64,000 nucleotides of DNA from the NCBI GenBank assembly GCA_048270185.1, contig JBLWTJ010000003.1, positions 160,001-224,000 on the forward strand, in the 5' to 3' direction. Source of the stretch: Bacteriovoracaceae bacterium (GTDB lineage: Bacteria > Bdellovibrionota > Bacteriovoracia > Bacteriovoracales > Bacteriovoracaceae). Made by a program: the position numbers and the translations under genes. Every line of letters starts with the position of its first letter. The stretch's first letter is position 1. The notes beneath the pieces are model-generated. The model saw only the letters and a list, made by a program, of their open reading frames with translations. It ran no database searches and was not told where the DNA came from. Shown piece by piece: positions 48,770 to 53,208 of this stretch.

Positions 48770-49810
48770 TTGAGAAGTGTTTATAAATTTGGTGGTAGCT
48801 CAATTAAAAGTGCTACCACCATTAAAGAAATCGCTGAGTTAATTTGTCATTGTCCAAACGACGCTCTTGTTGTTCTATCGGCAACATATAATTCAACGAA
48901 TGAGCTTGAAGAAATCTATCATAGTGAAAGTCATCTTCAGGAAGATCTCATTAAGGTTTTCTTTGATAAGCACAATAGTATAATATCTGAGCTAGGTTTA
49001 AACCTAAGCCTTGAGCATATTAAGGCCGAGCTTTGTGAAAGTCTTTTAAATGATAGTGGAGCAGATACTCTCGATTCGATCTATTGTATCGGTGAGCGTA
49101 CCTCAACGGCAATTCTTAGTAGCTACTTAACAAAGCTTGGTAAAGATCATCATCATGCCGACGCCCGAGATTTCATTACAACAAATACTGATTTTAATAG
49201 TGCGAAAGTACTCTTTAAAAATACAAAAGAGAAATGTCGTCAGCTAACAAAACATAAGCTTGTTATCACACAAGGCTTTATTGGAAGAACTCTTGATGGT
49301 AAAACTTCGACTCTCGGACGAGAAGGTTCTGATTACTCAGCGGCTATTTTTGCATGGGCCTTAGAAGATGTTAGTGAGCTTATCATTTGGAAAGATGTCC
49401 GTGGTATTTACGGGCATGATCCAAAGGTTCTCTCCAATGCTCCTCTGATATCTGCTCTAAGCTATCGCCAGACAAATCTATTAACAAACAAAGGTGCTAA
49501 GATCCTCTTTCATCGTACGATGAATCCTCTTATTGAAAAGGGACTACCGTTAATTGTAAAAAGTGTATTCCATCCGGAAGAGACCGGGACTCGTATCAGT
49601 GCAGAGGAGCGTGGAGCCTTTAAGGCCATCTCAACTGAAGATTCAACCATCACAGTCTTTGGTCAGGCCTTTGAAGATGTAAAACTTATTACTCATGCTT
49701 TTGAACTAGATGAGAATAATGATGATTACTTCTCGCTAAAAGTTAACCCACAAGAGATGAATGAGTGGATAAACCTCTTTGGTGATCAGCTATTTGGTTC
49801 TCATAAATAA
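48770..49810 (+). CDS. Aspartate kinase (short form)
   Basis: VYKFGGSS, LVVLSA, IGER, TQGFIG, TLGREGSDYSA, IWKDVRGIYGHDP. Confidence 0.9.
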   Translation: MRSVYKFGGSSIKSATTIKEIAELICHCPNDALVVLSATYNSTNELEEIYHSESHLQEDLIKVFFDKHNSIISELGLNLSLEHIKAELCESLLNDSGADTLDSIYCIGERTSTAILSSYLTKLGKDHHHADARDFITTNTDFNSAKVLFKNTKEKCRQLTKHKLVITQGFIGRTLDGKTSTLGREGSDYSAAIFAWALEDVSELIIWKDVRGIYGHDPKVLSNAPLISALSYRQTNLLTNKGAKILFHRTMNPLIEKGLPLIVKSVFHPEETGTRISAEERGAFKAISTEDSTITVFGQAFEDVKLITHAFELDENNDDYFSLKVNPQEMNEWINLFGDQLFGSHK

Positions 49811-50891
49811 CTGAAAAGATTGGCGTGTCATTTTCACTTCCATGAACTTCGATAATCTCTTTTACTTTCTTGTCCTCAAGAAAGATGACGTTATCAACAC
49901 TCTGGCATATTAGTTTTAATATTTGAGAAAAATCGATACCGTTTTTACTATTTGAAAAAATCGAAAAGAGAGTCGTTAGCCTTAAAAGAGTATCCTTGGC
50001 GTTATTGGCATGAATTGTTGTCATCATTCCTTTATGACCAGTATTCATCGCCAAGATAAAAGGAATGATTTCTTGTGAGCGTATTTCTCCAAGTAGGATT
50101 CTCTTTGGTGACATTCTAAGGGCATAACTACAATAATCGTTTAAGCTCTTTCCTGGGCTATCGTGGGCCAGGAGGTGAGTGGTATTTGAAATATCCCCAT
50201 CAATCTCTGAAACGTCTTCTATTATAATATGATGCTCTTTTTCATCACAAAGGCTTTTACAAACTCTAAGGAAACTAGTTTTTCCGCTGGCCGTAGAACC
50301 TGCAATCACAATATTCTTATAATTTGCAATGAGCCCATCAATTGCTATTCTAACTTCCTTTGTTAATGTGAAATCTGCCAAGGTGAAATTCTCTTTCTTA
50401 TGTACACGAATAAATAACTTTGCTGACTTTGAAGGTGTCAGGGATGGATGAGAGAGGGAGAGTCTTAAGTCAATTTCTCCTTTTGTTGTTTTTCTCGTAT
50501 CTTTGAAAGAAGCGAAAGGATGAGCAAAGTTCCAATCAATATTGAGTTTTCTTGTTAAGAAATTTAAACTGAGCTCGTAATCCTGTTGATTTAAGAATTC
50601 AACTTTAAGCTTGATTGTCTCCTGTCCCTCAACTTGTACATCACTTGGTGAGTGGATGATAAATTCATTTGCCTCATACATTTCAAGTAGGTCATTAATA
50701 TAGTCTTGATGGTAAACTTTATTAAACCAGGCTTTGACTGATTCAATATTTGAAATATCTTCTTGTTTGAGATTGTTTCGATTAAGAGTTTCTATGATGA
50801 TATTATCAAAATTAATAAATTGAGACTTTTTAGACGCTTCAATGATAGATGTCTTAAATTCATTAAAGAAGTATTGATCGATTGAGTTCAT
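49743..50891 (-). CDS. tadA: TadA/CpaF-family pilus assembly ATPase
   Basis: Walker A GSTASGKT, IEDVSEI Asp box, LRMSPKRILLGEIR (Walker B), MNTGHKGMMTTIHAN (His box). Confidence 0.9.
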   Translation of the reverse strand: MNSIDQYFFNEFKTSIIEASKKSQFINFDNIIIETLNRNNLKQEDISNIESVKAWFNKVYHQDYINDLLEMYEANEFIIHSPSDVQVEGQETIKLKVEFLNQQDYELSLNFLTRKLNIDWNFAHPFASFKDTRKTTKGEIDLRLSLSHPSLTPSKSAKLFIRVHKKENFTLADFTLTKEVRIAIDGLIANYKNIVIAGSTASGKTSFLRVCKSLCDEKEHHIIIEDVSEIDGDISNTTHLLAHDSPGKSLNDYCSYALRMSPKRILLGEIRSQEIIPFILAMNTGHKGMMTTIHANNAKDTLLRLTTLFSIFSNSKNGIDFSQILKLICQSVDNVIFLEDKKVKEIIEVHGSENDTPIFSVIYENQIADHQRGLSTHSSLVG

Positions 50892-50900
50892 TAGATTCCT

Positions 50901-52160
50901 TTATCGTAATTTCGCGATAGCAATAATTCGTTTATATGTTTTAAACTTTGCTGAAGAAGAAAATAGCTTTCCTAAGACTGGTATATTTCCTAGTAGAGGA
51001 ATATTTCGTGAAGAGTTGTCATCTGTTGTCAGATCAACTTCAAACATTTGAATGGCTGAATCCTTTCCAATTAGAAAACTCGATTGCTGAACATTACCTG
51101 ATATATATGTATCACCATTGAGCTGAGTCATAGGCCTTGTAAGCTTTGTTTTATACTTTATTTTGTAGCGATTATTGATTCGACTCAGTGTTAAATCAAT
51201 TTTTAATCCTGCAAATTTCCATTGGGTATTATTTCCATTATTCACTGTTGTCGTCGTATAGGGAACTTCAGATCCAATTTGGACAATCGATTTTTCATTC
51301 GTACGAAGGAGGATTTTCTGTGTCGCAAGTGTAGAGACTTCATAATCAGTATCCCTAAGGAGTATATTTTGATTTCTTGTTAAAGCGATCGCACCATTAT
51401 CAAGAAGGTCTGTAAGACCAACATTGATTTGATCGAGTCCAAAGTTAATTTCTCTTCCATCGAGTCTTTCAATTTGAATAATTCTCATTTCCAATTTGTG
51501 ATTATCTAAATTATCAAATCTTTGGGATAGCCTAAATTTAACAAAGTATTTTTTCTCTATTGGGGCCAAGAATTTCTGATCTTTTAAAATCTCTTCACTT
51601 GTCTCACATATAATATCAAGTTGAGACTTCATACATCTGATATCATCATAGTAGTTTTGAAAGAAACGATGATGAACTTCTGATATAATACTCTTTGCAA
51701 CTTTATCTTCGAGCTTACCTTGGAAGATGATCTCTTGGTTTTTTTGAAGTAGAGGTCTTAAGACTAAGTACTGCTCAGTTGTTCTAATATTTCCTGTAAT
51801 AAAGAGACGATCTCCTTTAATTCTTCCTGTGATGCCAAAATTCTTTAGATTCGCTAAGATCTCAAGCATTTTAAATTGACCGGCCTTAGAAAGAACATAT
51901 ATCGATATCGTACGCTTTTGATTATTCTGCCAAAGAGTGATGATTGAGCGTCCTTTCATTGAGCCCTTAATCAATAATTTTGAGTTGGCCTTATCGTGCT
52001 TACTTGTTAGGATCTCCTTGTTTGAGATACTGAAGCTTTCCACTCCCTTTAACGAAATTTCAGTAACTTGGCCTATGCTGAGAGTGATCTGGTTCTGCTT
52101 TACTGCGTAAACATTGAAATTTACGACAGATATTAAGGTAATCACTTTGACAAATGGCAT
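50901..52160 (-). CDS. RcpA/CpaC-like pilus secretin
   Basis: Signal-like MPFVKVITLISVVNFNVYA; N-domain SISNKEIL...LLIKG...GRSIITLW; secretin motifs GSEVPY, WKFAGLKI, IPLLGNIPVLGKLFSS. Start moved to 52160 because the longer frame overlaps a + strand gene. Confidence 0.85.
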   Translation of the reverse strand: MPFVKVITLISVVNFNVYAVKQNQITLSIGQVTEISLKGVESFSISNKEILTSKHDKANSKLLIKGSMKGRSIITLWQNNQKRTISIYVLSKAGQFKMLEILANLKNFGITGRIKGDRLFITGNIRTTEQYLVLRPLLQKNQEIIFQGKLEDKVAKSIISEVHHRFFQNYYDDIRCMKSQLDIICETSEEILKDQKFLAPIEKKYFVKFRLSQRFDNLDNHKLEMRIIQIERLDGREINFGLDQINVGLTDLLDNGAIALTRNQNILLRDTDYEVSTLATQKILLRTNEKSIVQIGSEVPYTTTTVNNGNNTQWKFAGLKIDLTLSRINNRYKIKYKTKLTRPMTQLNGDTYISGNVQQSSFLIGKDSAIQMFEVDLTTDDNSSRNIPLLGNIPVLGKLFSSSAKFKTYKRIIAIAKLR

Positions 52161-52233
52161 GAATCTTAGTAAAAAGTCATACTCAAAAGCTGTTTTAAAT
52201 TTAGTTTTGTATATATTATTGAGGAGATAAATC

Positions 52234-52359
52234 ATGGTTTCAAGAACTCGTATCACAAGAAACAAGCGTAATGCTAAGAAAACAAAAATGGGTGCTAAGA
52301 GAAAAGCGCATAACAGAAACAAGGGAACAACTCCTAAGTTTAAAATTCATTTAGATTAA
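52234..52359 (+). CDS. 41-aa Lys/Arg-rich small protein (not in the ORF track)
   Basis: RBS GAGGAG 7 nt upstream; MVSRTRITRNKRNAKKTKMGAKRKAHNRNKGTTPKFKIHLD; own terminator downstream. Confidence 0.85.
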   Translation: MVSRTRITRNKRNAKKTKMGAKRKAHNRNKGTTPKFKIHLD

Positions 52360-52388
52360 TATTAAATTTTTCTATTGATATATAAGAT

Positions 52389-52418
52389 AGGCCTTCTTTA
52401 TGAAGGCCTTTCTTGTTT
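52389..52418 (+). terminator. Intrinsic terminator after the 41-aa gene
   Basis: AGGCCTTC-TTTAT-GAAGGCCT followed by TTCTTGTTT. Confidence 0.8.
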
Positions 52419-52436
52419 GGGCCCAACCAAGCTTAC

Positions 52437-52733
52437 TTAGCGTGCAAAGGTGTTACTAAGAACCTTTTGATTTTGTCTTACTAGGATAGGTTCAAAGTTC
52501 TTTCCCTTAAAGCATAGGTGAAGAAGGGCATCTTTATAAATGTCTTCACATGGATTCTTCTTTTTGATGAAAGCAAAGTCTGATGGTTTCACACTGTATT
52601 CTTTCATCATTTCTGTGATCATCTTGTACATGATATTTTCTTGATTATCGTATGTGTAGACTATGATCTGTCTTGCATGAATATTTGCTGAAAGAAGCAT
52701 CATAAGCAGACTAAATTTCAATTTCATAAGCAC
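52437..52733 (-). CDS. Small secreted hypothetical protein of the Tad cluster
   Basis: Signal peptide MKLKFSLLMMLLSANIHA; RBS AGGAGG; one Cys pair. Confidence 0.78.
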   Translation of the reverse strand: MLMKLKFSLLMMLLSANIHARQIIVYTYDNQENIMYKMITEMMKEYSVKPSDFAFIKKKNPCEDIYKDALLHLCFKGKNFEPILVRQNQKVLSNTFAR

Positions 52734-53208
52734 CTCCTAAAGGTTTTGGGTGGTTAGTAACTGGATATGAAGCTAACTCAAGGGCCTTAAATGGCTCAAT
52801 CTTATTCAACTCTGAAATAGGAATTTTTACTAAGTAGATAGGAGTATCATCATTACTAAGCTCTTTTATAATTTTTGCCTTATTTGTAATATGCTGGCTC
52901 CCTGAATATAGAGCGATAAATTGGTCTTTACCTACTGTATTGGTCATTTCGTTTATTTTAAGCTTTAGAATTGTTTCATCTTTATTAATGACAATCTCTC
53001 TTTCCTGAATGATTGGTTCTGATGGCATGGATAGAATAAAAGTAAAGATATTAGTCAGTAGAAGTGCCATCCAAAACTTCATATAGAGTGAGCGCTTTAA
53101 TTTCTCTTCTTTCTCCTTATTAAATAGAAGTGCTTGTGGAGTGTCCTTATTTGATTGAATTCCAATTGTTGATGAATTGTTTGATTTGTTGTTGTTTAGA
53201 ATTTTCAA
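52711..53208 (-). CDS. Single-pass membrane protein of the Tad cluster
   Basis: TM segment FWMALLLTNIFTFILSM then a beta-rich region; overlaps neighbours; start uncertain. Confidence 0.7.
   Translation of the reverse strand: MKILNNNKSNNSSTIGIQSNKDTPQALLFNKEKEEKLKRSLYMKFWMALLLTNIFTFILSMPSEPIIQEREIVINKDETILKLKINEMTNTVGKDQFIALYSGSQHITNKAKIIKELSNDDTPIYLVKIPISELNKIEPFKALELASYPVTNHPKPLGGAYEIEI

Follow-up and report, generated by a model that had tools for sequence, protein, structure and literature searches.

The DNA analysed here (referred to as the window) is a stretch of 64,000 nucleotides from a marine predator of the genus Halobacteriovorax (Bacteriovoracaceae, phylum Bdellovibrionota; NCBI GenBank assembly GCA_048270185.1, contig JBLWTJ010000003.1, positions 160,001 to 224,000 of the forward strand). 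Inside a cluster of genes for Tad/Flp pili it harbors a small gene on the + strand (52234..52359; ATG at 52234, TAA at 52357-52359; 41 codons, the stop being included in the coordinates), which encodes a polybasic protein of 41 amino acids. Translation of 52234..52359 yields MVSRTRITRNKRNAKKTKMGAKRKAHNRNKGTTPKFKIHLD. Nine lysines and six arginines add up to 15 basic residues, while D41 is the sole acidic residue; the computed isoelectric point is 12.0, the mass 4.82 kDa and the net charge approximately +14 over 41 residues. Neither a hydrophobic or membrane segment nor a signal peptide was found in the protein sequence. The gene fills a gap of 276 bp, in which it is divergent from a secretin gene and convergent with the gene for a 98-aa protein of the pilus cluster.

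The small gene is flanked by putative expression signals. A Shine-Dalgarno sequence (GAGGAG, 52221..52226, + strand) is located 7 nt 5' of the ATG, and GAGGAG, AGGAG or GGAG stands at the equivalent place in the relatives compared. Further upstream, an exact -35 hexamer (TTGACA, 52147..52152, + strand), positioned within codons 3-5 of the secretin gene on the opposite strand, is separated by a 17-nt spacer from a -10-like hexamer (TAAAAA, 52170..52175, + strand); transcription would start near 52182. The -10-like hexamer is omitted by the consensus promoter scan, which demands a T at position 6. An intrinsic terminator (52389..52419, + strand) begins 30 nt past the stop codon and is composed of a hairpin (52389-52409) with an 8-bp stem (five G-C pairs) and a 5-nt loop, followed by the T-rich tail TTCTTGTTTG. 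Two terminator-like sites were listed in 1 kb compared to 0.5 expected from shuffled sequences; the hairpin is listed for both strands, and folding of the predicted transcript keeps it in the minimum free energy and centroid structures alike. Read on the - strand, it could also stop transcripts of the gene for the 98-aa protein (orf98) and of the pilin genes. In the region from 51900 to 52600, no Rfam family came near its gathering score; the best was L20_leader (23.6 vs 58.7 bits), a score caused by the terminator. The sequence elements named in the initial annotation (GAGGAG, the ATG at 52234, the TAA ending at 52359, 15 K/R and one acidic residue, TTGACA at 52147 and the terminator) all proved correct on re-reading, and the gene reads as a monocistronic unit with a near-consensus promoter of the sigma-70 type, a strong Shine-Dalgarno sequence and a terminator of its own.

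Searching public protein sets gave 24 homologues with lengths of 41-54 aa; those with a named source are 'hypothetical proteins' from Halobacteriovorax and Bacteriovorax. The description of the gene as uncalled in the initial annotation applies to the mechanical list of open reading frames (ORFs), where it is masked, but relatives of up to 93% identity are already deposited as 'hypothetical protein'. In line with the homology search proposed there, pattern and profile searches retrieved a family conserved in most of the phylum. Alignment of 25 close homologues (A1) revealed 18 invariant positions, many of them non-basic. Codon positions 1, 2 and 3 have entropies of 0.54, 0.50 and 1.22, respectively, across 84 distinct coding sequences. 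The median ratio of nonsynonymous to synonymous substitution rates (dN/dS) is 0.25 (1263 of 3486 pairs, namely those with usable synonymous divergence), and substitutions are conservative in the + frame only. Where the same loci were compared by tblastn, the small protein is 63-100% identical, in contrast to 22-74% for the adjacent secretin. Conservation extends to the flanking signals. In 85 of 89 orthologous loci, the 140 nt upstream of the gene contain an exact TTGACA, preferably at a distance of 78-93 nt from the ATG, and the hexamer at 52147 is a genuine -35 element that is conserved; 17-18 nt after it, the -10 region of relatives reads GTAAAAA, TTAAATT or GTAGAAA. A hairpin with a T tail follows within 120 nt past the stop in 77 of 90 distinct orthologous loci, with stem sequences that are unrelated to each other. 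These comparisons show the small gene to be real and subject to purifying selection, and its recurrence in relatives goes far beyond chance.

The secretin gene (50901..52160, - strand) is of the Tad/Flp type (RcpA/CpaC-like; Pfam Secretin PF00263, E 2.1e-10) and probably starts with the ATG at 52160. The mechanical ORF list runs its frame on to a TTG at 52322, thereby crossing the small gene. Read antisense to the K/R-rich codons of the small gene and with a common wobble position, this extension tends to stay open because such codons, when reversed, give leucine, phenylalanine and serine. The mean BLOSUM62 score of differing residue pairs in the 84 distinct orthologous sequences is -0.96 in the antisense extension compared to -0.10 in the + frame, and stops interrupt the antisense frame in 10 of the 84. 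Similarity to other secretins, as determined by tblastn, starts at residues 1-3 of the form beginning at ATG 52160, whose residues 1-20 look like a signal peptide by eye. Owing to the stops in relatives, the non-conservative substitutions, the start of homology at ATG 52160 and its nature as an antisense wobble frame, the extension is non-coding. The secretin ORF is therefore over-extended, in agreement with the initial annotation, which had described the small gene as masked by it; the objection raised there, a true secretin start upstream of 52234, is contradicted by homology that begins only at ATG 52160. The likely secretin start lies within the promoter spacer of the small gene, and a simple reason why the pair is hard to separate would, we infer, be that the -35 box reaches into the beginning of the secretin gene. 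A candidate secretin promoter listed by the scan (TTGAAA-17-AATAAT, 52243-52215, - strand) was rejected since it varies at the Ser3 and Val2 codons of the small gene (among 84 sequences, Ser3 is encoded by TCA in 46 and by TCT in 36).

A search with the single protein (E ≤ 10) matched 50 of 61 relatives, including 10 of 12 genomes of the genus (11 of 13 with the source genome) and 32 of 36 of the family. With a profile of 90 sequences (E ≤ 0.001), 364 of 401 sampled Bdellovibrionota genomes gave a match, nearly all of them exactly one; the values are 361 of 395 for high-quality genomes and 178 of 197 for genera. Three families were without a match among the genomes searched (f6, 0/28; f16, 0/2; f20, 0/2; f, G and L numbers are our handles for families, genomes and loci). 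The small gene is present in a 0.9-Mb, 96%-complete genome (G037) as well as in genomes of 1.2-1.5 Mb. When each GTDB species was scanned with one genome, 258 sites were found to encode NKGTTPKF, of which 251 are confirmed relatives. The taxon-named entries among the 80 loci kept all belong to Bacteriovoracia or other Bdellovibrionota, with the exception of metagenome-assembled genomes labelled Proteobacteria, Deltaproteobacteria or 'bacterium'. A profile search of 1.84 billion representatives returned 114 clusters at E ≤ 0.001, all of at most 123 aa, and a sub-family profile returned 720 clusters. The few source names of these clusters are all 'hypothetical protein', and some bins bear the tentative labels CSSED10-310, Alphaproteobacteria or Myxococcota. 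Fused or longer forms were not found between 147 and 2000 aa, a search that counts as weak evidence. As far as searched, the unnamed family seems confined to Bdellovibrionota and a few unplaced metagenome bins. The literature on nucleoid compaction and ribosomes of Bdellovibrio, on Halobacteriovorax transcriptomes and on lineage-specific ribosomal proteins, searched without supplementary transcriptome or proteome tables, does not describe the protein, and that of the window is the first described member of this phylum-wide family.

For an estimate of the expression class, codon usage was scored as the mean log-likelihood of 25 ribosomal-protein genes (S10/spc/alpha cluster, NCBIfam-confirmed) against 2229 long ORFs. 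The small gene scores +0.171, compared to +0.154 for 40-codon windows of ribosomal-protein genes and -0.184 for 40-codon windows of all ORFs. Its score is reached by only 2.1% of the all-ORF windows and falls in the 99th percentile among whole-gene scores, while the flanking tad genes score -0.295 (secretin) and -0.229 (tadA). The promoter pattern TTGACA-N16-18-TAnAWW occurs at only 22 sites in the 3.35-Mb genome, among them the promoter of the small gene; other sites precede L21-like and S4-like genes (identified by eye), and the promoter of the S10 operon is near-identical (TTGACA-N17-TAAAAG). We infer that the small gene is strongly expressed in a ribosomal-protein-like manner. The promoters of the S10 operon (contig 1 near 1775511) and of the L21- and S4-like ORFs (contig 1 1476850 and contig 3 near 263386) share the form TTGACA-NN(N)-AGGCCC..-TAAAA. 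A spacer with GGCCC is common to the promoters of small-gene orthologues from several genera (e.g. L015, L047, L052), and this form may be a signature of the translation apparatus. As a specific link, the shared TTGACA-NN-GGCCC spacer was rejected, given that a loose pattern yields 75 mostly irrelevant matches in the genome and the copy in the window reads GGCAT.

No family in Pfam or NCBIfam was matched by the small protein at E ≤ 1. Comparison of the 90 family members with the family libraries retrieved no ribosomal family and only chance matches (Cyclin_N2 for 6 members, best E 0.021). The protein was not assigned to phage small proteins because it is without a PHROG match at E ≤ 1; two orthologues reached only E 0.22 and 0.53. 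That it matches no recognised family, as had been stated initially, is borne out by the Pfam, NCBIfam and PDB profile searches. In a confident AlphaFold2 model based on 90 sequences (pLDDT 88.1), residues 4-18 and 21-30 are helical, the invariant G20 marks the turn and the tail is extended (pLDDT 60-74). Foldseek returned 0 matches, and the best VIA-align Z of 3.4 was obtained on generic helices, including two mitoribosomal chains, a hairpin of 41 residues being too small for a verdict on the fold. In the ESM Atlas, unnamed clusters scored 0.94-0.97, while the nearest named ones, DUF6800 (0.83) and Ribosomal_L32p (0.79), are below lead level; identity with either was rejected, as Pfam confirmed neither. 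The proteins bL32, bL33, bL34, bL35, bL36 and bS21 are all encoded elsewhere in the genome, which rules out a diverged copy of, or a stand-in for, a missing standard small ribosomal protein. A leader peptide, a type I toxin and an antimicrobial peptide were also discarded, on account of the lack of a hydrophobic segment, the gene's own terminator and the phylum-wide conservation at the protein level. A second tiny polybasic ORF is located in the same genome (contig 1, 1736829-1736933, + strand; L124:829-933). It encodes 34 aa with 44% K/R, is preceded by a Shine-Dalgarno-like site and has no NCBIfam match even at E ≤ 10. The gene beside it (L124:2-649, - strand) encodes a Lys-rich low-complexity start of approximately 50 residues, followed by an ordinary-looking protein.

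Two lineage-specific C-terminal motifs are found on the shared 33 N-terminal residues of the family. One is GTTPKF.IH, while the Bdellovibrio-type form (e.g. L119:5001-5129, L120, L121, L137, L142, L144, L146-L149) ends with GTT...LFGD or LFKD. The B. bacteriovorus orthologue is located at contig 1, 165132-165257 (G135). Ala/Lys/Pro-rich repeat tails, which bring the total length up to 99 aa, occur in Bacteriovorax stolpii, Peredibacter and many Bacteriovoracaceae bins (L048-L109; e.g. L066:4001-4219, L093:4001-4300). The protein of the window stops at residue 41 without such repeats, and the tails are optional C-terminal additions in some orthologues. A search for Peredibacter proteins sharing the tail returned the small protein alone. 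Since NCBIfam holds 'sunset domain' variants of L4 and L17, ribosomal proteins that carry such tails too, the tails do not decide between a ribosomal and a nucleoid role. L17 itself is tailless in Peredibacter and has a longer frame in a Bdellovibrio genome, from which no inference was drawn.

The neighbourhood of the small gene differs between lineages. In the window, a gene for a TadA-like secretion ATPase (49743..50891, - strand; Pfam T2SSE PF00437, E 1.2e-27) is located downstream of the secretin gene. On the other side, the gene for the 98-aa exported-looking protein (orf98, 52437..52733, - strand) is convergent with the small gene and has counterparts of 33-60% identity in loci of the same genus. 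Neither its product nor that of the neighbouring gene for a 165-aa protein (52711-53208, - strand) matched a Pfam or NCBIfam family; both genes are kept beside the small gene within the genus (25-66% identity). In Bacteriovoracia, the small gene is arranged head-to-head with a Tad-type secretin gene in 20 of 20 loci according to tblastn and in 76 of 78 according to Pfam (Secretin and/or N-terminal domain). This neighbour test was applicable to 78 of the 80 loci, and of the two misses, one ORF is truncated at a contig end and the other gave no match. About 30 other families, each sampled with one or a few genomes, represented the rest of the phylum. Here, two arrangements were distinguished, which track the C-terminal motif. 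With GTTPKF.IH (type A), the secretin gene is divergent in nine families (f10, f14, f15, f18, f19, f21, f23, f25, f29), and metK is directly downstream on the same strand in those nine except f19 and additionally in f24 and f33. With GTT...LFGD/LFKD (type B: f9, which is Bdellovibrio-like, f13, f17, f22, f26, f30, f31, f32, f34 and f37, with f28 as a variant), a gene for an outer-membrane beta-barrel-like protein of approximately 280 aa is located upstream on the same strand and a TonB_C gene is convergent; sub-threshold PorV/PorQ matches were obtained for the upstream gene in 5 of 5 cases tested. Seven families (f3, f4, f5, f7, f8, f11, f27) have other neighbours. The link to the Tad genes is accordingly ancient and stable across one half of the phylum but not universal. 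In Halobacteriovoraceae, pilin and pseudopilin genes simply occupy the place that metK holds elsewhere. In the 0.9-Mb genome (G037; L021, contig 1, 205746-211862), which belongs to the same taxonomic order, the small gene stands beside a T2SSE ATPase gene and a 324-aa ORF, which occupies the position of the secretin and has no Pfam match at E ≤ 1e-5.

Because the ten Bdellovibrio-type families place the small gene beside outer-membrane and TonB-like genes, it is not a Tad component. In the window it sits between the pilin/pseudopilin genes and the rcpA-tadA-like genes, but on the opposite strand, with its own promoter and terminator, and it is also present in lineages away from Tad genes. A role as part of the Tad/Flp machinery was rejected for these reasons and in view of the lack of a Tad family match, the lack of a hydrophobic segment and a co-occurrence with Tad genes that is not universal. 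A description of the Tad loci of these organisms (RcpA secretin, TadA and others) names no such small gene in the part available to us (PMC5430801).

We tentatively favour the reading that the small gene encodes a lineage-specific ribosomal or stably ribosome-associated protein. This is because it is small, polybasic, specifically conserved, single-copy, near-universal, kept in reduced genomes, ribosomal-protein-like in its codons and self-contained, a set of properties shared with bTHX (Thermus), bS22 and bL37 (Actinobacteria; bS22 also in Bacteroidota and Borrelia) and bL38 (Bacteroidia). All of these resemble the small protein in size (25-50 aa), extreme K/R content and helical character, and each is restricted to one phylum or class and strongly conserved there; the small protein shows no sequence similarity to any of the four (PDB profiles, Pfam, NCBIfam). 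The report on bL38 describes a protein that was found only by cryo-EM, is conserved across Bacteroidia and is growth-critical, and whose gene is downstream of those for bL28 and bL33 (PMC11851116), whereas the small gene lies outside ribosomal-protein operons. In the mechanism we propose, a highly expressed housekeeping gene would encode a 4.8-kDa polycation, for residues 4-30 of which a basic hairpin of two helices with a turn at G20 is predicted; the extended tail with the invariant GTTPKF.IH would come after it. The protein would bind a specific structured nucleic acid, rRNA being the likeliest; the invariant S3, T5, T8, G20, A25, N29 and G31-T-T-P would make sequence-specific contacts, and the lysines and arginines would neutralise phosphate charge. 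That so many of the invariant residues are non-basic speaks for a defined binding pocket over a generic charge coating. The place in the Tad cluster would be a long-frozen neighbourhood and not functional membership. With more hesitation, we suggest that the protein may be an unrecognised ribosomal protein of the Bdellovibrionota deserving a new bS or bL number and occurring in essentially all predatory Bdellovibrio-and-like organisms; its C-terminus would exist in two versions that follow the two great branches of the phylum, and some lineages would have an H1-like tail on the surface of the ribosome. The proposal of a lineage-specific ribosomal or nucleic-acid-binding protein in the initial annotation is supported in part, in so far as the protein is lineage-specific and very basic and as codon usage, single-copy near-universality and the helical-hairpin model fit it.

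Several observations weigh against a place on the ribosome. Profiles of the alignments A1 and A2 were compared with all PDB chains, solved bacterial ribosomes included (although apparently no Bdellovibrionota ribosome was among them), and yielded 0 matches for A1 and one noise match for A2 (Tyw1, E 0.069). In none of the 40-odd genomic contexts examined is the small gene part of a ribosomal-protein operon, the sole exception being G043, from one of the seven families with other neighbours, in which it comes after a uL3-like gene, with efp facing it. A divergent pairing with one secretin, conserved over such a long time, is unusual for the gene of a ribosomal protein. An abundant nucleoid protein would account for the codon usage and universality just as well. 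Finally, the Ala/Lys/Pro tails of many orthologues resemble histone H1 and are more often discussed for DNA-binding proteins.

The main rival to the ribosomal reading, which we consider unlikely, is an abundant nucleoid-associated protein, the basic hairpin of which would bind DNA and help to condense the chromosome in the manner of Hc1/Hc2, protamines or H1; the nucleoids of these predators are very compact in non-growing attack-phase cells. Chlamydial Hc1/Hc2 and similar nucleoid proteins are polycationic, contain Ala/Lys/Pro repeats and occur in bacteria with a condensed, non-replicating infectious stage. The small protein resembles them in its polycationic nature, with a net charge of about +14 on only 41 residues, and some orthologues do so in their Ala/Lys/Pro tails, up to 99 aa in total in many Bacteriovoracaceae; such tails are H1-like as well but, being found also on the 'sunset' variants of L4 and L17, they do not discriminate. 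The strong promoter, codon usage of the highly expressed type and a location apart from ribosomal-protein operons would suit a nucleoid protein, too, as would the occurrence in single copy and nearly universally in a phylum whose model species is reported to have an unusually compact nucleoid (PMC8445325, PMC11318664). Its conserved core, however, is a specific 39-residue sequence without repeats or low complexity, in which 18 specific residues are invariant, many of them non-basic, and this is more typical of a defined pocket than of a generic coating of DNA. The copy in the window is tailless and has no Lys/Ala/Pro low-complexity repeats, so that membership in an H1-like or Hc1/Hc2-type family was rejected for it. 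Retention of the gene in a 0.9-Mb reduced genome also speaks against the nucleoid. A preprint on B. bacteriovorus lists SMC, HU, Fis, IHF, Dps and the proteins with a histone fold, Bd0055 and Bd3044, as nucleoid proteins and, in the part available, omits a protein of this kind, which is an absence of mention only (10.1101/2025.09.24.678257).

A small adaptor or regulator is rather improbable. It would dock on a protein partner via its C-terminal motif (GTTPKF.IH or GTT...LFGD) while the hairpin holds RNA, with RNA polymerase, an RNA chaperone system or a ribosome-hibernation or rescue pathway as examples of partners. Two sharply distinct, lineage-specific motifs on a shared N-terminus of 33 residues suggest co-evolution of a short linear motif with its partner, and the tail is modelled as extended with a pLDDT of 60-74, but the gene neighbourhood indicates no such partner. 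Weak expression and a terminator inside the ORF characterise rescue factors of the ArfA/BrfA kind; the small gene, in contrast, has its terminator 30 nt past the stop and the codon usage of highly expressed genes. Very improbable, in our view, is a role devoted to regulating or insulating the Tad genes, be it control of the divergent secretin-tadA promoter by the protein or separation of pilin from secretin expression by convergent transcription and the two-way terminator. Conserved divergent gene pairs often link a regulator to its target, and the pairing in 20 of 20 and 76 of 78 Bacteriovoracia loci and in nine further families, the -35 box overlapping the secretin start and a hairpin that is terminator-like on both strands would all be compatible with this. 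Against it stand the ten Bdellovibrio-type families without an adjacent secretin, the much better conservation of the small protein compared to the secretin, a codon usage unlike that of the tad genes, the lack of conservation of the candidate - strand promoter inside the 5' end of the small gene, and the fact that nothing is left to insulate where metK replaces the pilin genes. The same observations bear on the suggestion of the initial annotation that transcription of the small gene may uncouple secretin-tadA from the pilin genes. The convergent arrangement with a two-way hairpin fits it locally, but it is not the reason for the gene's existence, considering the replacement of the pilin genes by metK elsewhere and the ten families that lack the adjacent secretin; the hairpin may well terminate transcripts of the pilin operon, which would be a side effect of this gene order.

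The core machinery of Bdellovibrio-and-like organisms is of interest because these bacteria serve in research as living antibiotics and as model systems of a two-phase predatory life cycle. The small protein represents a gap in the parts list of these bacteria: roughly nine in ten of the phylum's genomes encode it, its codon usage is ribosomal-protein-like and it has no family name. For annotation, the locus illustrates how the open antisense frame of a K/R-rich microgene lets an adjacent secretin ORF over-extend and thereby hides the small gene. A DNA-coating function, if true, would bear on nucleoid compaction in these predators. If, as we tentatively favour, the protein resides on the ribosome, the set of lineage-specific ribosomal proteins would grow by one, and the control of translation between attack and growth phase might become accessible through it.

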